From contig CANPXV010000003.1 in assembly GCA_947586855.1 (NCBI GenBank), positions 24,274 to 88,273 on the forward strand: DNA of 64,000 nucleotides. Direction: 5' to 3'. The position numbers and the translations under genes are program-made. Below the pieces are notes generated by a model. It saw only the letters and a program-made list of their open reading frames with translations, was not told the DNA's origin and did not search any database. Below are positions 26,762 to 55,155 of the stretch, one piece after another. Within the stretch, counting starts at the first letter, position 1. Each line of letters begins with the position of its first letter. The DNA comes from an uncultured Clostridia bacterium. GTDB lineage: Bacteria > Bacillota > Clostridia > Christensenellales > CAG-314.

Positions 26762-26777
26762 ATACTCACAACAACAA

Positions 26778-26895
26778 ATTCTTTGGGGCGTGGTGCAAGT
26801 CCACACCGATAGTGACAGCCTATGAACGCCTGTTTTCAGGCGCCGATCAGGTGAAATTCCTGAGCCGACGGTAACAGTCCGGATGAGAAAAGAAT
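26778..26895 (+). promoter_or_regulatory. FMN riboswitch (RFN element)
   Basis: P1 attctt/aagaat. Conserved cores GGGGCGTGGTGCAAGTCCACACCG and CAGGTGAAATTCCTGAGCCGACGGTAACAGTCCGGATGAGA. A riboflavin transporter gene lies downstream. Confidence 0.85.
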
Positions 26896-26915
26896 AAATA
26901 CTTTTCGTATTTTGC

Positions 26916-35506: not shown

Positions 35507-35666
35507 GGTGATAGTGTATGCAGACGGGGCGTATTTTATAAGGGTTTGCTTGCGCCGATTGCTGTTTTTGCGGCGTTTGGGCGCAGCGCAGCGGCAAAAG
35601 ATGTTGTTGACTTTTGCGGCGGAATTGCTTACAATATAGCTATCGAAATCAAGGACGGTGTATCAC

Positions 35667-36620
35667 ATGAAGCTAAGCAGATTTACCTCGCACGACGGCC
35701 GAGAGGTGCAACTGTACACCTGGGACGAAGTGCCCCTTGCCAAGGGCGTTGTCAAGATTGCCCATGGCATGGTGGAGCACTCTGCCCGCTACGACGATTT
35801 TGCCCAATTTCTCAATCAACACGGCTACATCGTGGTGATGAACGACCATCGGGGCCACGGCCTCACCGCCGAAAAGGACAGCCTCGGCTACGAAGAGGGG
35901 GATATGTTCGGCAACAACGTCAAGGACCAGCTTGCCATCTTGGATCACTGCCGCAACAAGTACAATCTGCCCCTGTACATGATGGGACACAGCTACGGCA
36001 GCTTTGTTGTGCAGGCCGTCATCGAGCAGCACCCCTCTGTCAACGGATTTGTGCTGTGCGGCAGCAACTACATCAAGGGCGTAAGCTACACGGCGTGTTC
36101 CGTCATCGCCAAGGGCATGTGCCGACACAAGGGCGGCCGCTATCCTGCCGAGCTTATCGCCAAACTGTCCTTTGGCAGCTACGAAAAGAAGTTTCCCGGC
36201 AAAAACAATTGGCTCAACCGAGACGAAAACGAGGTTGCCAAGTACAACAACGACGAGCTGTGCAGCTACACCTGTTCCGCCAACTTCTATCGCACCTTTA
36301 TGGCGGGCATCTCAAAGTTGTACGATAAGCAAAGTTACAGCGCCATCAACACCGATACCCCCATCTTGCTGATTGCGGGCAGCGACGACCCCGTCGGCAA
36401 CTACGGCAAGGGCGTGGCAAAACTGCAAAAATTTTATACCGACAAGGTGGGCGTTCAGGACGTGACAATGCACTTGTACGACGGCGCCCGCCACGAGATT
36501 CTCAACGAAACCAACAAATCTCAGGTGTACAACGACGTGCTTAGCTGGCTGGACGAACGCACCCCTGCGCCCGCCGCTCCCACCGACGAACCTCCCGTCG
36601 AAAAACGCCGCCGCCGCTGA
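35667..36620 (+). CDS. alpha/beta hydrolase (lysophospholipase / monoacylglycerol-lipase-like)
   Basis: VKIAHGMVEHSARY, DHRGHG, elbow GHSYGS, late HEILNE. ATG at 35667 follows AAGGA. Confidence 0.75.
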   Translation: MKLSRFTSHDGREVQLYTWDEVPLAKGVVKIAHGMVEHSARYDDFAQFLNQHGYIVVMNDHRGHGLTAEKDSLGYEEGDMFGNNVKDQLAILDHCRNKYNLPLYMMGHSYGSFVVQAVIEQHPSVNGFVLCGSNYIKGVSYTACSVIAKGMCRHKGGRYPAELIAKLSFGSYEKKFPGKNNWLNRDENEVAKYNNDELCSYTCSANFYRTFMAGISKLYDKQSYSAINTDTPILLIAGSDDPVGNYGKGVAKLQKFYTDKVGVQDVTMHLYDGARHEILNETNKSQVYNDVLSWLDERTPAPAAPTDEPPVEKRRRR

Positions 36621-36747
36621 TTTGTCCCGACCGCCGCAGTGGTGCAATGTTTTCACTGCTGTCGTGCGATTTCACTCGCCCCTCTCAACTCTCCCGCCCG
36701 CTACCTGCCCACAGCCCTTTTGCCGCATCGCATGTGATGCAATTTTA

Positions 36748-36776
36748 TTGACATCTGCCACAAAAGAAGATATACT
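36748..36776 (+). promoter_or_regulatory. promoter of candidate sRNA 1
   Basis: TTGACA (36748-36753), 17-nt spacer, TATACT (36771-36776). Confidence 0.5.
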
Positions 36777-36782
36777 AACAAC

Positions 36783-36866
36783 AGGTAAGTGGCATATTGC
36801 GCACTTACACCTGCCGTCAAGTGTTGCGGCATTGCCCCGAACGGATAGTTTCGGGGACATTTTTTG
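36783..36866 (+). ncRNA. candidate small RNA 1 (about 84 nt), unknown class
   Basis: Bounded by a consensus promoter and an intrinsic terminator (CCCCGAA-cggatagt-TTCGGGG plus TTTTTT, 36835-36865). Two upstream hairpins. No SD-led ORF. Confidence 0.4.
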
Positions 36867-37249
36867 CCCTCTTGCCCTGCGATTTAGTACGTAGTGTGGT
36901 GGTGCAAACTCGCCGTCGAATCGCTTGCGCCTTGTTTCTCTTCCTCTTCTTCCCTCTTTTCTTTTCTCTTCTTTTTTTTCTTTCTTCTTTTTCCCTTATT
37001 TTTTTTCTTTTTCACCCTCTCTTCTCTCTCTTTTTTCCCTTTCCGTCCTTCCTTTTATTTTCTCACCCCGACCATTTGCTGTTTTATGTAATACAGTGGA
37101 GTAATGTTTTCGCCGCCATCATATCGATTTTACCCCGTCTCAGCCTCTCCTTTCTCTTCTTTTTTCTTTTCCTTCTTCTATCCCTCTCCTCTCTCACGCC
37201 CTCTATCTGCCCACAGCCCTTTTGCCGCATCGCATATGATACAATTTTA

Positions 37250-37278
37250 TTGACATCTGCCGCAAAGTGATATATACT
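37250..37278 (+). promoter_or_regulatory. promoter of candidate sRNA 2
   Basis: TTGACA (37250-37255), 17-nt spacer, TATACT (37273-37278). Flanks are near-identical to the sRNA 1 promoter. Confidence 0.5.
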
Positions 37279-37284
37279 TATAGA

Positions 37285-37368
37285 CAGTTGAACGGCTTAT
37301 GTGCGTTCATTCCCGCCAACTCACTTGTGGCATTGCCCCGAACGGATTAGCTTCGGGGACTTTTTTTG
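37285..37368 (+). ncRNA. candidate small RNA 2 (about 84 nt), paralogue of sRNA 1 with divergent 5' body
   Basis: Same promoter and the same terminator (CCCCGAA...TTCGGGG plus TTTTTTT, 37336-37367). The 5' 50 nt or so differ strongly from copy 1. Confidence 0.4.
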
Positions 37369-38551
37369 CCCACTTGCCCTGCGATTTAGTACGTAGTGTG
37401 GTGGTGCAAACTCGCCGTCGAATCGCTTGCGCCTTGTCTCTCTTCCTCCTCTTTCTTTTCTCTCTTCCTTCCTCTTTTATTTCTTTTTTTTTCTTTTCCC
37501 GCTCCCCTTCTCTTTCACTCTTTTCTTATTTCTCTTTCCCGCCCGTTTGCTGTTTTTTTTGTGTAGCGCAGTGGTGCGTTTTTGCTGCCATCTGGTCGCC
37601 CCGTTCCAGCTTCTCCTCTCACTTCTTTTTTTTCCTTCTTCTATCCTCTCATCTCTCCCACCCGCTACCCGTCCACAACCCTTTTCGCCACCTCTTGCCC
37701 AGCGATTTTGTACGTAGTGTGGTGGTGTCATATTTACGCCGTCGAATAGATTGCGCCATGTCTCTCTTTTTCTTTTTTTCTCTCTTCTTTCTCCCTTATT
37801 TTTTCTCTCCTTTTCTTTCCTCTCCCTTCTCTTTTTTTATTTCTTCCTCTCTTTCTCTTTTCTTTTTCCTTCCCCACCTGTTTTCTGTTTTTTGTGTAGT
37901 GTAGTGGTGCGTTTTTGCTGCCATCTGGTCGCCCCGTTCCAGCTTCTCCTCTCACTTCTTTTTTTTCCTTCTTCTATCCTCTCATCTCTCCCACCCGCTA
38001 CCCGTCCACAACCCTTTTCGCCACCTCTTGCCCAGCGATTTTGTACGTAGTGTGGTGGTGCAAACTCGCCGCCGAATCGCTTGCGCCATGTCTCTCTTTC
38101 TCCTCTTTCTTTTCTCTCTTCCTTCCTCTTTTATTTCTTCTCTTTTCTTTTTCCGCTCCCCTTCTCTTTCACTCTTTTCATATTCCCTTTCCCGCCCGTT
38201 TGCTGTTTTATGTAATATAGTGGTGTAATTTACCAACGCCATCGTATCGATTACGCCCCGTTCCAGCCTCTCTCTTCTTTTTTTCCTTCTCCTTTCTCTT
38301 TTTTTTATTTTTTCTCTTTTCCCCCTCTCCTTTTTTTCTTATTTCCCTTCTCTCTTTTATTTTTTATCCCTTTTATCCTCTCTTTTTTCTTCTTTGCCGG
38401 TCGGAATTTTGGTACAAAGGGGCGAATGAATAAATATGCAAAGGCGATTTATAAATATGCAAAAAAGCGCATAAACATACAAAATATTCTGTATAAACAA
38501 TTTTTCTTGCAAAAACCGTTGTTTTCGGGTGAATAAATATAAAAATAGTTA

Positions 38552-38580
38552 TTGCATTGCGGCGGCAAATATGGTATAAT
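38552..38580 (+). promoter_or_regulatory. gyrBA promoter
   Basis: TTGCAT (38552-38557), 17-nt spacer, TGgTATAAT (TATAAT 38575-38580), in an AT-rich block about 105 nt upstream of the gyrB ATG. Confidence 0.55.
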
Positions 38581-38686
38581 ATCTGCGTTGGAGAGTGCAT
38601 TTTATGCAATTTTGCCTCGGCAGCGGGGCAGGGCTTGCGGTGCGCTCTGCAAAGTACAACGGATACACTCATTCGGAGGATAACAA

Positions 38687-40648
38687 ATGAGCAAAACTTA
38701 CGAAGCAAAAGACATTCAGGTGTTGGAGGGCTTGGATGCCGTGCGTATGCGGCCGGGCATGTACATCGGCACTACGGGGCGCACGGGTCTGCATCACCTG
38801 TTGTGGGAGATAGTGGACAACGCCGTGGACGAGGCCAGCAACGGCTTTGCGGACAGGGTAGAGGTCACACTGCACACGGACGGCAGCGTCACTGTCAGCG
38901 ACAACGGCCGAGGCATACCCGTCGACGAGCACCCGCAGCTAAAAATCAGCGGCGTCGAGGTGGTGTTTACGCAGCTGCACGCAGGCGGCAAGTTCAACAA
39001 CGAAAACTACGCTTTTTCCGGCGGATTGCACGGCGTGGGTGCCAGCGTCACCAATGCGCTTTCGTCCTGGCTGACGGTCAACGTCAAAAAGAACGGCTAC
39101 GAGTACGAGCAGCACTTTCACAGCCCCACCGACGCCAATGGCAAGGTGCTAAGCGGCGTCCCCAAGGATCACCTCACCAAGATTGGTCCCACCGATCAGC
39201 ACGGCAGCACGATAACCTTTTTGGCCGATGCCCGAGTGTTCAAAAACATCCAGATGGACTACGACATCATACACAAGCGCATCAAGGAGTTGGCCTTTCT
39301 CAACCGGGGCATCACCTTTGTGCTGACGGACGAGCGTGGTGTGGACGACGACGGCAACGTGCGCAGCGAAACATTCTGCTACAACGGCGGACTGAAAGAC
39401 TTTGTGCTGTACCTCAACGAAAACAAGGCGCCGCTGCACCTCAATCCGCTGTATTGGAGCGGCAAAAACGACACTTTGCAGCTGGAATTTGCCTTTCAAT
39501 ATACCACCAACTACACCGAAAACCTCATTTCTTACGTCAACAATATCCCCACGGGCGAGGGCGGCATGCACGAGACGGGCCTCAAAACGGCCATGACGAA
39601 GGTGTTCAACGACTACGCCCGCAACAAAGGCTTTTTGAAAGCCAAGGACGAAAACCTGCTGGGCGAAGATTTTCGAGAGGGTATCACGTTGGTGATGTCC
39701 GTCAAGATGGCCAACGTGCAGTTTGAGGGGCAAACCAAAACCAAATTGGGCAATGTAGAGGCCAAGATCGCCTGCGAGGCGCTGGCTACCGACGCCTTTG
39801 CCGAGTTGCTCTCCAAAAACAGCTCCGACGCCGAGACCATCATCAAAAAATCCATCGCTTCGGCCAAGGTGAGAGAGGCCGCCCGCAAGGCAAAGGAAGT
39901 CACCCGCCAAAAGAACAGCATTTTCAACAGCACTTTGGTGGGCAAGTTGGCCAGCTGCACGGGCAGGGACGCCTCCAAAAACGAGCTGTTCATCGTGGAA
40001 GGCGACAGCGCAGGCGGCAGCGCCAAGCAAGCCCGCAACCGTCGTTTTCAGGCCATTTTGCCGCTGAGAGGCAAGCCGCTCAATGCCGAGCGCAAGCGTA
40101 TCGACCAGGTGTTGGCCAACGAGGAGATCCGCTCCCTCATCAACGCCCTGGATACGGGCATAGGAGAAGAGGACTTCAACATCGACGACCTCAAATACAA
40201 CAAGATAATCATTTTGTCCGACGCCGACCAGGACGGCGCCCACATCAGGGCCATTTTGCTTACCTTTTTCTTCCGCTACATGCGAGAGCTCATCACCGAC
40301 GGCCACGTGTACATTGGCATGCCGCCGCTGTACAAGATCTCCAAGAAGGACAAGGTGCGCTACGCCTACGACGACTACGAATTGCAGGAGATCGTCGGCG
40401 AGTTCGGCCGAGGCTACGACCTGCAACGCTACAAGGGATTGGGCGAGATGAACGCCGAGCAGCTGTGGGAGACCACCATGAACCCCGAAACCCGCACCCT
40501 TATGCGTGTCACCATCGAAAACATCTCCGAGGCGGAGCGCATGGTGACCACCCTCATGGGGGATCAGATCGACGCGCGCAAGGCGTACATCACAGAAAAC
40601 GCCGATTTCAACAAGGACAACGACGCCCTGTTCGACAAATTGGTGTAG
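38687..40648 (+). CDS. gyrB: DNA gyrase subunit B
   Basis: YEAKDIQVLEGLDAVRMRPGMYIG, HHLLWEIVDNAVDE, GGLHGVGASV, EGDSAGGSAKQARNR, PLRGK, DADQDGAHI. Confidence 0.95.
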   Translation: MSKTYEAKDIQVLEGLDAVRMRPGMYIGTTGRTGLHHLLWEIVDNAVDEASNGFADRVEVTLHTDGSVTVSDNGRGIPVDEHPQLKISGVEVVFTQLHAGGKFNNENYAFSGGLHGVGASVTNALSSWLTVNVKKNGYEYEQHFHSPTDANGKVLSGVPKDHLTKIGPTDQHGSTITFLADARVFKNIQMDYDIIHKRIKELAFLNRGITFVLTDERGVDDDGNVRSETFCYNGGLKDFVLYLNENKAPLHLNPLYWSGKNDTLQLEFAFQYTTNYTENLISYVNNIPTGEGGMHETGLKTAMTKVFNDYARNKGFLKAKDENLLGEDFREGITLVMSVKMANVQFEGQTKTKLGNVEAKIACEALATDAFAELLSKNSSDAETIIKKSIASAKVREAARKAKEVTRQKNSIFNSTLVGKLASCTGRDASKNELFIVEGDSAGGSAKQARNRRFQAILPLRGKPLNAERKRIDQVLANEEIRSLINALDTGIGEEDFNIDDLKYNKIIILSDADQDGAHIRAILLTFFFRYMRELITDGHVYIGMPPLYKISKKDKVRYAYDDYELQEIVGEFGRGYDLQRYKGLGEMNAEQLWETTMNPETRTLMRVTIENISEAERMVTTLMGDQIDARKAYITENADFNKDNDALFDKLV

Positions 40649-40660
40649 CGAGGTGACAAA

Positions 40661-43141
40661 ATGAGCAAACAAGTAGATATTTTCGATTTGGAACACAGCG
40701 ACATAGTAAAAATGGAGGACGGCAGCAACCTGCTTACCAAGCCAATGGAGGTGGTGATGCACGAATCCATGATGCCCTATGCCGAGCACGTAATATTGGA
40801 TAGGGCGTTGCCCCGTGTGGAGGACGGCCTCAAACCCGTCCAGCGCCGCATATTGTACTCGATGTACGAGCAGGGCAACACTCCCGACAAGCCCACACGC
40901 AAGTCCGCCCGTATCGTGGGCGACTGCATGGGCCGCTATCACCCCCACGGCGACAGCTCCATCTACGATGCAATGGTGCGTATGGCGCAACCCTTTGCCA
41001 TGAACGTGCCCTTGATCATCGGTCAGGGCAACTTCGGCAACATCGACGGCGACAGCGCCGCAGCCATGCGTTACACCGAGGCCAAGCTGTCTCCCTGCGC
41101 ATTGGAGCTGCTTCGGGATATCGAAAAGGACACCGTCCGCTGGTCCCGCAACTTCGACGACACCACCAAGGAGCCGGACATGCTGCCGGGACGCTTTCCC
41201 AATCTGTTGGTAAACGGCGCCACGGGCATAGCGGTTGGCCTTGCAACCAACATCCCGCCCCACAACTTTGGCGAGGTGATAGACGGCACAATTGCCTACA
41301 TCGACAACCCCCGCATTTCGTTGCAATCCATGATGAAGATCATCAAAGGGCCGGATTTTCCCACGGGCGGGCACGTCATCCCCGGCGACGGCCTTGCCCA
41401 GGCCTACGAGACGGGCAAGGGCAAGATAACCATTCGTGCCAAAATGCACATCGAGGTGGCACCCGGCGACAGGCGCAACATCGTCATCACCGAGATCCCC
41501 TACGGTCTCAGCAAGGCGGATATGCTGATAAAAATCGCCGCCTTGAAGGACGAAAAGAAGGAGATGTTTGCCGGAATAGCCGAGATCGTCGACGAAAGCG
41601 ACAAGGAAGGTTTGCGTGCCGTCATCAAGTTGCGCAAGGATTGCGACTTGGCCCAAGTGGTGCAAAACCTGTTCAAATACTCGCAATTGCAGGTCAGCTA
41701 TGGCATCAACATGGTGGCCATCGCCGACGGCAAGCCCCAGCTGATGGGCCTGCTTGACATCATCGCCTACTATGTGGCCTACCAGCGGGACGTCATTCTC
41801 AAACGCAGCAAGTTCGAGCTGGAAGAGGCCAAGGAGCGTGCGCACATACTGCAAGGTCTGGTCATCGCCGTCACCAACATCGACGAGGTGATACGGATAA
41901 TCAAAAACTCCGCAGGCACCACGGACGCCCGCAACAAGCTGAGGGAGCGCTTCGACTTGTCCGAGCGGCAGGCGCAGGCCATTCTCGATTTGCGTCTGGC
42001 CCGCCTCACCAAGCTGGAAGTAAACAAGCTGGAAAACGAACTGAAAGAGTTGGAGCACACAATTGCACGCCTCAACATCATCATCAACAGCCGCAAGGAG
42101 CAGATGAACCTCATCAAGACCGAGCTGACCGTGCTCAAACGCAACTACAAAACGCCCCGCCTGTCGGAGATTTGCAAGAGCGAGGAGGACGCCGTTATCC
42201 CCAGCGAAACGGACGAAAAACCCGTCGAAACGGTGGTGGTGGGCATTTCCGCCGACTACACAGTCAAGCGCATACCCGTCAAAAACTTCAATCTCTCGCA
42301 AAAGGACGCCATCGGCAGCAGCTCGGCGGAGCTGTTGACCCGTGCCGTGGAGACCAAGACGGACGTCAACGTGATGTTTTTCAGCAATCTGGGCAACTGC
42401 TTCCGTATCAAGGCGGGGGACTTGCCGGAGATCCGCTATCGGGATACGGGCGTGATGCTAAGCCACATCTTCCCCGAGGCGCAGATGGGCGAGCTGCCCG
42501 TGGCCGTCTTTGCCCAAAACAGCGACGACACCGGCGGCGAACTGCTGTTCTACACCCGTCAGGGCATGATCAAGCGCACCGCCTGGAGCGAGTATCAACT
42601 GCTAAAACCCGTGTTTCAGGGCTACAAGGGCAAGGACGATGACGAAGTGTTCAAGGTGGAGCTGGTGCGCCCCGACACGGAGATATTCTACGTCACCAAC
42701 AGGGGCGGCTGCACCCGTTTCGACGTGGCCGAGGTGCCCTTGCAAGGCCGTGTGGCGGGCGGCGTGCATTGTATCAACCTGTCCGACTCCGAATACGTCA
42801 TGTTTGCGGGTCAGGTAAGCGGCGGCGAGGTGCTGCTTGTCACCAACAAGGGCTTTATGAAGCGCCTGCCCGTCAGCGAAATCGCCAAGCACGCCCGCAA
42901 CTGCAAGGGCGCCAAGGGTATCGAGTTCGGCGTCAACGGCAGCAGTATCGTGTTTGCCGACTACCCCGCAAATGGCTCCTTCAAGCTGGCCGTCTACGAC
43001 AGGGCCAACACCTATGTTGTGGATAGCGCCGATGTCTCGGTGGAAAACAAAAACCACAAGGGCAAGCTGCCTCTGGGCAAAAAGGGCGGCATAGCGGTGG
43101 AAAAAATCATCCGCTACTGCACCGAGTCGGAAAAGATTTAG
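40661..43141 (+). CDS. gyrA: DNA gyrase subunit A
   Basis: [46 protein letters not shown] (catalytic Tyr region), C-terminal beta-pinwheel repeats. Confidence 0.95.
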
Positions 43142-49658: not shown

Positions 49659-49733
49659 TGGCTCCCCGTGTTGGGTTTGAACCAACGACCCTCCGGTTAA
49701 CAGCCGGATGCTCTGCCGCTGAGCTAACGAGGA
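49659..49733 (-). tRNA. tRNA-Asn (anticodon GTT), CCA encoded
   Basis: Manual fold: acceptor TCCTCGT/ACGGGGA, D-arm AGCTCAGCGGCAGAGC, anticodon stem TCCGG/CCGGA with loop CTGTTAA, T-arm GGTTCAAACCC, discriminator G plus CCA. Confidence 0.9.
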
Positions 49734-54424: not shown

Positions 54425-55155
54425 TCCTCCCCTGCCCCCGCTTTCTCCCTTTTCCCTCTCTTTTCTCTTTCCCTCATTCATTTATTATTTTATTCTTTTC
54501 TCACCCAAACATATTTTTTCTCTCATTCTCTCTTGCCCCTCTCGCTTTTCCCCTCTCCGCTCTTGCTTTCTTTTCTCCCCTCATAATAGAGGGGCATTAT
54601 TTCCTGCAATAAAGTAGAAAAAGTGATTGCAAGGGTTGTGCGATCTCAAAAATAACAAGCGCACATGCCCGTTGCGGCAAAAGATGTTGTGCAAATGACT
54701 TAAAAAAATGTGGTGATAGCTTTTTTATAGATAACAGCGGTGCAGCAGCTTTCAAACTCGCCCCGTCCCCCTCATCTCTCCCATTCTCTTCCTTTTCTTT
54801 CTCTTCCCCTTTCCCCCTCTTCCTTTCTTCTTCCCATTTTCTTTCTCTCTTCCTCTTCTTTCTTTTTTCACTCTTTTATTTTTTCCTATTCTTTTTTATC
54901 GTTCGTTTCTTCCCGCCCCTCGCTCGGAATTTATGTCGCCGTGTGCGAACGAAATAAAATTATTTGCCGCCGCCCGCCCCTCTCTCCCTCTCTTCTCACT
55001 TCCTTTCTCTTCTTCTTTTCTCTCTTTTTCTCATTTTTTTCTTTCTCTCTTCTCTCTTCTCTCTTATTTCCCCCTCTCTTTCTTTCTTCCCTCCCCTCTC
55101 TTTCTTCTTTTTCTTCTCTTTCTTCTCCCCTTTTTTCTTCTTTCCATCTCTCGCT
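54425..55155 (+). repeat. three polypyrimidine tracts (54425-54590, 54757-54925, 54975-55155) in a divergent intergenic region
   Basis: C/T-only runs. The header AGCGGTGCAGCAGCT at about 54735 followed by CTCTCCCATTCTCT matches the header of the 50-kb array. A GTTCGTTTCTTCCCGCCCCTC box lies at about 54900. Confidence 0.8.

Follow-up and report, generated by a model that had tools for sequence, protein, structure and literature searches.

Two tandem small-RNA genes upstream of gyrB in an uncultured Clostridia genome belong to a three-hairpin family associated with a mobile element

What is the role of two short cassettes, each with its own promoter and terminator, that lie between a hydrolase gene and the gyrase genes of an uncultured Clostridia bacterium? 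The cassettes occur in a stretch of 64,000 nucleotides (nt) of contig CANPXV010000003.1 (assembly GCA_947586855.1), the whole of which is referred to here as the window, and they occupy its positions 36748-36865 and 37250-37367 on the forward strand, which is the strand of all features below unless stated otherwise. The intergenic region that contains them (36621-38686) separates an S33-type alpha/beta hydrolase gene (35658-36620) from gyrB and gyrA (38687-43141). Judged from their sequence, both cassettes are intact genes of a single family of small RNAs with a length of approximately 85 nt, which is new to Rfam and of a known kind, the small antisense or regulatory RNAs of mobile elements. 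The reading favoured here, to which we give somewhat better than an even chance, is that they are element-derived antisense RNAs acting through their hairpin loops.

A promoter scan of positions 36500-38800 returned exactly two sigma-70-like promoters, at 36748-36776 and 37250-37278, both of the form TTGACA-17 nt-TATACT and matching the consensus at 11 of 12 positions; the -10 hexamer of the first has the model position seen in approximately 33 of 40 members of the family, and the position of the second is likewise conserved. Downstream of each promoter come approximately 84 nt, the last of which are CCCCGAAC...(G/C)TTTCGGGG and a T-run, and each small RNA is predicted to be transcribed from its own strong sigma-70 promoter. 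The 19-nt 3' handle GGCATTGCCCCGAACGGAT has two mismatch-free occurrences in the window, against 0.03 expected by chance, and no further copies are present elsewhere in the 1.47-Mb, 36-contig genome. The two copies share 88% identity over 97 nt of upstream flank and promoter (repeat family D6) and have three differing positions and one indel in their last 41 nt, whereas their 44-nt 5' bodies can be aligned only with several gaps, which confirms the contrast between near-identical flanks, promoters and 3' ends and a diverged 5' body that had been drawn in the first-pass annotation of this DNA. That annotation had also placed a promoter, a body of approximately 84 nt and a common terminator in both modules, all of which are present, and had taken the cassettes for small-RNA units. 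The view that they are self-contained small-RNA genes, neither leaders nor coding sequences, is supported by the promoter and terminator of each unit and by the open reading frame (ORF) check, which bore out the claim that neither cassette contains an ORF led by a Shine-Dalgarno sequence. A long frame (37299-37904) does start inside copy 2, without a ribosome-binding site, and is open only because CT-rich DNA has no stop codons.

Both copies fold into three hairpins, P1, P2 and P3, the last of which is the intrinsic terminator, with a short C-rich single-stranded linker between P1 and P2. Small RNA 1 (36783-36865; covariance-model match of 92.9 bits) combines the backbone termed A with a P2 loop of type beta, has a predicted 5' end at A36783 +/- 2 and a 3' end within the T-run 36860-36865, and folds at -32.4 kcal/mol (z = -3.3). 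Its P1 hairpin and linker (36784-36811) involve the arms 36786-36791/36802-36807, the loop GCATATTGCG and, after the hairpin, a single-stranded CACC(T) that resembles an anti-Shine-Dalgarno sequence. P2 (36812-36831) pairs TGCCG with CGGCA around the loop TCAAGTGTTG, with covariation at all four pairs, and P3 (36835-36865) pairs CCCCGAAC with GTTTCGGGG, with one bulged U and the loop GGATA, before the T-run. Small RNA 2 (37285-37367; 107.3 bits) combines backbone B with a P2 loop of type alpha, its predicted 5' end lying at 37284-37286 and its 3' end within the T-run 37361-37367. It is composed of P1 (TTGAACG/CGTTCA) followed by the single-stranded linker TTCCC (together 37288-37314), P2 (GCCA/TGGC, loop ACTCACTTG; 37315-37331) and the P3 terminator (37336-37367), in which CCCCGAAC pairs with GCTTCGGGG around the loop GGATTA and is followed by the T-run.

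This fold is conserved among homologues. RNAalifold applied to seven sequences recovered the three helices with compensatory changes at five pairs, and in an alignment of 40 distinct homologues 99.6% of the cells form standard pairs and all 18 pairs (six in P1, four in P2 and eight in P3) have changes on both sides. None of 500 shuffles reached the observed level of covariation, and slid partner columns pair at 29-55%. Neutral evolution of the 5' part without compensation, an outcome raised in the first-pass annotation, is therefore not what is seen, the pairs of both P1 and P2 covarying in homologues. On the strand that bears the promoter and terminator, G-U pairs outnumber A-C mismatches by 7 to 1. 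Approximately 33 of the 40 members have a promoter that matches the consensus at 9-11 of 12 positions and has its end at model position 0 or -1; the conserved items are the hexamers and the 17-nt spacing, because the spacer sequences are often unrelated among members. One subfamily has a 61-nt 5' extension, and its promoter lies correspondingly further upstream. A promoter of its own, an intrinsic terminator and a structured non-coding segment that is conserved in homologues thus give each cassette the sequence features of a stand-alone small-RNA gene.

No known RNA family explains the two copies. A scan of the window with Rfam 15 at gathering thresholds returned nothing on the cassettes, the only matches in the window being a flavin mononucleotide (FMN) riboswitch and a tRNA elsewhere, and at E values up to 10 neither cassette had a match within 36600-38700, nor had the homologous loci; the RsaE, LhrC and csRNA models of Rfam did not match the cassettes. 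When relatives were searched with BLAST, four other species of the genus proved to have homologues, and every one of these comes with a promoter and a terminator. Covariance-model searches detected the family, with convincing scores, in six of 47 genomes of the genus, and also in five of 150 sampled genomes of the order, the latter spread over four other families, and an exact 21-nt pattern was found in nine of 401 genomes of the order (none for the reversed control pattern). The family is carried by 18 metagenome contigs and by seven genome contig records, which are labelled uncultured Christensenellaceae, Christensenella sp., Clostridia, Eubacteriales, 'Acidiphilium sp. CAG:727' and 'Lachnospiraceae'; the first pattern used in the search of genome contigs was too generic, approximately 10% of its at least 120 matches being real. 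Phage and plasmid collections and IMG/VR, searched with the small RNA, contained no true match.

The usual home of the family is a mobile-element-like cluster of approximately 12 kb in uncultured gut Clostridia, the genes of which all lie on one strand in the order SprT-like protein, small proteins, surface-repeat protein, p667, p160, p766, HUH Rep and IS30-like transposase. Between p160 and p766 there is a gap of approximately 180 nt, and it is here, on the other strand, that the small RNA is encoded; the complement of the p160 stop codon is part of its T-run, and the distance from its 5' end to the p766 ATG is 55-90 nt. Either or both of p160 and p766 are found beside the RNA in 14 of the 18 metagenome contigs and five of the seven genome contigs that carry it. 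The sole consensus-like promoter in this gap is that of the small RNA and there is no terminator on the gene strand, so p766 and rep are probably read through from upstream across the small-RNA gene. Encoded on the other strand, the small RNA is bound to be antisense to whatever transcript continues from p160 into p766 and rep.

Among the proteins of the cluster, the SprT-like protein has the Pfam SprT-like domain, p150 has no family match, the three small proteins have 67-78 amino acids (aa), the surface protein contains Listeria-Bacteroides repeats, p667 has a signal peptide and a C-terminal membrane anchor, and p766 has N-terminal membrane helices and a Walker A motif. The HUH Rep is of the G2P/ORF2 type (PF23343, with the motifs HFHGLLY and YLLKYIGK), and the transposase is an IS30-like DDE enzyme (phrog_4646, rve domain). 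Searches of Pfam, PHROG and NCBIfam with p766, p667 and p160 gave no family match. We regard the cluster as an uncharacterised integrative element with a rolling-circle Rep, for which a plectrovirus- or inovirus-like nature is possible. The IS30-bounded 'IScream' phages (PMC12823448) are tailed phages and are not this element. The only phage record with homologues of p766 and Rep is MT835493.1, an unverified faecal contig. Locus L156 (G032:C10:5000-22000) and the loci homologous to it represent an abundant, unannotated gut element of approximately 12 kb. In genome G005 the small RNA is directly followed by a second unit (locus L157, 5225-5335) with the consensus-like promoter TTGACA...TACAAT, a structured segment of approximately 75 nt and a terminator; at a distance of 0.9-1.3 kb upstream are two tRNA genes, which adjoin the element.

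Variation within the family is concentrated in the P1 and P2 loops, whose column entropies are 1.5 and 1.3 bits, respectively (1.32 bits per column for P2), against 0.3-0.4 bits in the spacer and P3. The proposal in the first-pass annotation that the two copies have different targets gains from this, as they differ in the parts likeliest to choose a partner. Its comparison with guide RNAs, in which a variable body is joined to a constant 3' handle, fares less well: the diverged 5' part consists of two conserved hairpins with compensatory changes, hypervariability is confined to their loops, and no effector nuclease gene lies nearby. Two backbones can be distinguished, A (GGUAA...UUACACCU, with the P3 loop GGAUA) and B (GUUGAA...UUCAUUCCC, with the P3 loop GGAUUA), together with six types of P2 loop, namely alpha (AACUCACUUG), beta (UCAAGUGUUG), gamma (AUAUUGGAUUG), delta (CAAGUCUUUG), epsilon (ACUGACUUG) and zeta (ACAGUCUUG), all of which have UUG at the 3' end. 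Whole P2 hairpins swap between the backbones, A being found with beta and gamma and B with all six types; the combinations in the window are A with beta (copy 1) and B with alpha (copy 2).

The P2 loops of co-resident copies are complementary in several places, as CAAGUG/CACUUG in the window and in locus L037, CAAGUC/GACUUG in G024 and ACAGU/ACUGU in locus L051. The predicted loop-loop energies are -6.7 kcal/mol in the window, -9.8 in G024 and -7.9 in L051, and -6.7 kcal/mol is reached by only approximately 11% of all loop pairs. This complementarity, noticed after the fact and at few loci, is suggestive.

As countertranscripts, the small RNAs would make the first 'kissing' contact through their hypervariable P1 and P2 loops with complementary hairpins of the p160-to-p766 transcript. 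Owing to the ensuing duplex and to head-on transcription driven by the strong promoter of the small RNA, less p766 and rep would be expressed. Specificity groups would correspond to the P1 types and to the P2 types that reassort, alpha to zeta. The orphan copies in the window would act in trans on a matching element, either incoming or not binned with this genome, and could also act on each other because their P2 loops are complementary. The transcription of the small RNAs, their target and the outcome are all predictions. The antisense geometry itself is seen in the element copies, and the window copies lie in non-coding DNA instead.

The window copies are orphans because the assembly of their own genome is without the element. 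When 13 element proteins were compared with this genome (93% complete, 36 contigs), no specific match was found, the only matches being generic repeat-domain ones to p564; the assembly is metagenome-style and incomplete, and the element may thus have been left unbinned. Copy 2 shares 96-97% identity in the body and 86% in the promoter with the element copies at loci L013 and L105, and upstream of the -35 hexamer and downstream of the terminator identity to element copies is at background level. The neighbours of the other orphan and array loci are unrelated. The p766 gene is absent from G008, G024, G062 and G094 and is present elsewhere in the genomes of G143 and G113; strict mutual exclusion of orphans and element was rejected, since G143 and G113 have both.

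Two of the array loci have further structure. At L051 (1-1300, reverse strand; equivalent to G113:C9, approximately 88.2-89.3 kb), the small RNA has four copies that alternate with the same number of other mini-units, each extending from promoter to terminator; these are of two kinds (approximately 70 and 125 nt) and are all absent from Rfam. The region has the appearance of an island of small RNAs, and the same contig carries a p766-like gene at a distance of 12 kb. At L037 (5200-7000), four copies lie in repeats of approximately 600 bp, three of them with the 61-nt 5' extension, and each copy is followed by another promoter, TTGACT-17-TATACT, that points downstream into non-coding sequence.

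The setting of the two window copies is itself an array. Positions 36621-38400 form 1.8 kb of modules of 330-500 nt, built of conserved boxes and long polypyrimidine (CT) tracts, with GC skew down to -0.6 and AT skew down to -0.8, and a search of 46 other genomes of the genus did not reveal this CT-rich array. A segment of approximately 143 nt is missing from modules 3 and 4 at the same junction, in agreement with the earlier observation that the cassette is absent from some modules exactly there. Alignment of filled and empty modules places a TTTTGCC direct repeat on both sides of the filled sites, at 36718-36724 and 36862-36868 for cassette 1 and at 37220-37226 and 37364-37370 for cassette 2. 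This flanked presence and absence would be expected if the segment had been either inserted or deleted by way of that microhomology. The upstream edge of the segment carries a small hairpin, GCATCGCATGTGATGC (36725-36740), a terminator-like site that is missing from the empty modules together with the rest of the segment and is degenerate in copy 2 (37227-37242).

Shorter CT-rich look-alikes of the array occur at approximately 54785-55065 of the window and on contig C7. Just upstream of the gyrB promoter region, positions 38400-38560 are AT-rich (33% GC) and contain three ATAAATATGCAAA-like repeats; a comparison of this segment with Rfam gave chance-level matches only. The FMN riboswitch lies at 26775-26898 (forward strand, 100.8 bits) and the tRNA gene at 49662-49733 (reverse strand).

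Several results weigh against an element-derived antisense function. The window copies have no cis target in their own genome, because the assembly is without the element. The target prediction proposed in the first-pass annotation gave no trans target above chance in that genome (blastn-short); the best complement, a perfect 15-nt match to the P1 loop region of small RNA 1 (E = 0.08) in the middle of a 253-aa ORF (G000 contig C13:1323-1337, L007), is probably due to chance. Within the element, no second complementary site was found that covaries consistently with the P2 loop type. The placement of the gene also varies, as the related element in MT835493.1 is without both p160 and the small RNA and the element copies in G005 and G191 carry the small RNA elsewhere. 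The alignment in which covariation was counted was fitted to the model and many of its rows are close relatives, and the hairpins would form in the single-stranded DNA of a Rep-type element too. A complement of the zeta loop upstream of p160 was considered as a target and rejected, this conserved leader segment being present with every loop type.

A bolder form of the antisense reading, which we think improbable, is that of a hard-wired RNA immunity, in which the orphans are domesticated antisense regulators of the element and each loop type silences the matching group. If this were true, arrays of several types, such as beta and alpha in the window and epsilon and delta in G024, would broaden protection, as would the four-copy arrays in L037 and L051. 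Linked to this is the possibility that co-resident paralogues pair through their complementary P2 loops, with one RNA titrating the other.

The small RNAs might instead be trans-acting and directed at the host, the linker, which reads CACCU in small RNA 1 and UUCCC in small RNA 2, pairing like the loops with ribosome-binding regions of chromosomal mRNAs and the association with the element being secondary. Tandem paralogues, each with its own promoter and terminator, agree with such a role, as do the P1-P2 linker, which is unpaired in every fold and C-rich or anti-Shine-Dalgarno-like, and the orphan copies in varied chromosomal contexts of at least five genomes without the element. The complementarity of UUACACCU of backbone A to the ribosome-binding site AGGUGUAA of p160, seen in several elements, points the same way, but this site is present whichever backbone the local small RNA has. 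The linkers, moreover, differ between the backbones, the own-genome targets do not exceed chance, and the models of RsaE, LhrC and csRNA do not match. A family found in nine of 401 genomes of the order is also too sparse for a housekeeping regulator, and a host-directed role is judged unlikely.

A further possibility involves p160, a small protein of 150-160 aa with very basic tails and the core ERPVVVIE...LAVVPLSSR, which has at least 279 homologue clusters, all labelled hypothetical or unnamed. Its leader, approximately 30-70 nt upstream of the start, contains a conserved long hairpin, GACTGTCGGACGG...CCGTTCGGCAGTC (L220, L221, L200, L181, L031 and others), followed by the ribosome-binding site AGGTGTAA, which is complementary to UUACACCU of the backbone-A small RNAs. 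The convergent small RNA at the 3' end of p160 could be an RNA antitoxin or partner that keeps p160 in check, either through a 3' overlap as in type I systems or through protein binding as in type III systems, and the chromosomal orphans would then be antitoxin-only, 'anti-addiction' copies. At least 16 loci have the two side by side, the related element in MT835493.1 has neither of them, and at L222 both p160 and the small RNA that abuts it are diverged. The p160 core weakly matches PemK_toxin in 12 of 13 members, but the best E value (4e-4) is below the Pfam cutoff, a profile search of PDB structures gave no match, and the AlphaFold model has a mean predicted local distance difference test (pLDDT) score of 42. 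The RNA overlaps only the stop codon of p160, it occurs without p160 in G191, G005 and all orphan loci, and P2 does not track p160, because nearly identical p160 proteins accompany different P2 loops. A toxin-antitoxin pairing is thus also doubtful, and to about the same degree as host-directed regulation.

In a rolling-circle element, which may be single-stranded, the hairpins could also function as DNA and provide the origin or a packaging signal, with the orphans as relics or decoys and the promoter and terminator incidental or used for priming. The element encodes a G2P/ORF2-type HUH Rep and the hairpins fill one of its few intergenic gaps, and covariation in hairpins is by itself no means of telling RNA from single-stranded DNA. 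CTTG is present in several P2 loops and may resemble the nick-site core of the pC194 and phiX174 origins; gamma-type loops, however, are without CTTG on either strand, and the rule that loops end in UUG holds on the RNA strand. The promoter hexamers keep their 17-nt spacing at a fixed distance despite diverged spacers, a T-run always follows P3, and the orphans keep the exact promoter-to-terminator unit in arrays of two to four, all of which leaves a purely DNA-level role only a slight chance. That the RNAs are guides, in which a variable 5' segment selects targets for a protein bound to a constant 3' handle, is scarcely credible, since although the 3' third (spacer and P3) is the most conserved part (0.3-0.4 bits) and the conservation, bulged U and GGNNA-type loop of P3 mean that a protein could bind it, the variable part is base-paired rather than free, only 6-8 nt vary per loop, there are no CRISPR-type short direct repeats, and neither the neighbourhood of the window copies nor the element contains a gene of the Cas, TnpB or IscB kind.

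Whichever of these roles applies, the family is a structurally well-supported addition to the small RNAs of uncultured gut Clostridia, in which hardly any regulatory RNAs have been described, and it provides a handle on an abundant and uncharacterised mobile element. It is unusual in that whole hairpins are swapped as modules between two backbones and in that the minimal unit recurs as orphans and arrays. The module-swapped loops offer a compact natural system for antisense specificity, and if the orphan arrays act against the element, they would represent an RNA-only defence made of promoter-to-terminator units.

Element-derived antisense RNAs have their closest known counterparts in the countertranscript RNAs lambda OOP, P22 sar, P1/P7 c4, ColE1 RNA I and R1 CopA. 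The small RNAs described here resemble these in having a length of 70-110 nt, a strong promoter of their own, an intrinsic terminator and two or three stem-loops, and in being encoded opposite a mobile-element transcript, which in the present case is a predicted one. As in P1/P7 c4 immunity and the incompatibility groups of ColE1 RNA I, the loops are the variable parts, and by analogy they may determine specificity. Unlike the countertranscripts, the small RNA overlaps an intergenic junction rather than a start codon or primer, stand-alone chromosomal copies extend from promoter to terminator, singly or in arrays of two to four, and no Rfam family is similar in sequence or by covariance model.

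The multicopy C-rich small RNAs of Firmicutes, which pair with the ribosome-binding regions of chromosomal mRNAs, are similar in other respects. Like LhrC1-5 of Listeria, RoxS/RsaE and the streptococcal csRNAs, the present RNAs are tandem paralogues with their own promoter and terminator and have an unpaired C-rich or anti-Shine-Dalgarno-like stretch between hairpins. They differ from these in a linker that depends on the backbone, in the lack of an Rfam match and in a sparse distribution that goes with a mobile element and shows no conservation within a lineage.

Toxin-antitoxin systems and phage morons provide the remaining parallels. The arrangement in which a small protein gene of a mobile element is met at its 3' end by a convergent small RNA is shared with bsrG/SR4 and txpA/RatA, and the weak, below-threshold PemK/MazF-like signal of p160 recalls ToxIN, the ToxN protein of which shares the PemK/MazF fold. 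In contrast to type I toxins, p160 is a basic protein of 150-160 aa and not a short hydrophobic peptide, and the overlap is limited to the stop codon; in contrast to ToxIN, there is no tandem array of 36-nt repeats on the toxin strand, the RNA being a single opposite-strand unit downstream of p160. Phage morons are independent promoter-gene-terminator units inserted between phage genes, and the small-RNA unit is like them in that homology stops at the -35 hexamer and the terminator and in that the unit is present or absent between conserved neighbours. It departs from the morons in that its cargo is a non-coding RNA and in that the unit also multiplies in chromosomal arrays.

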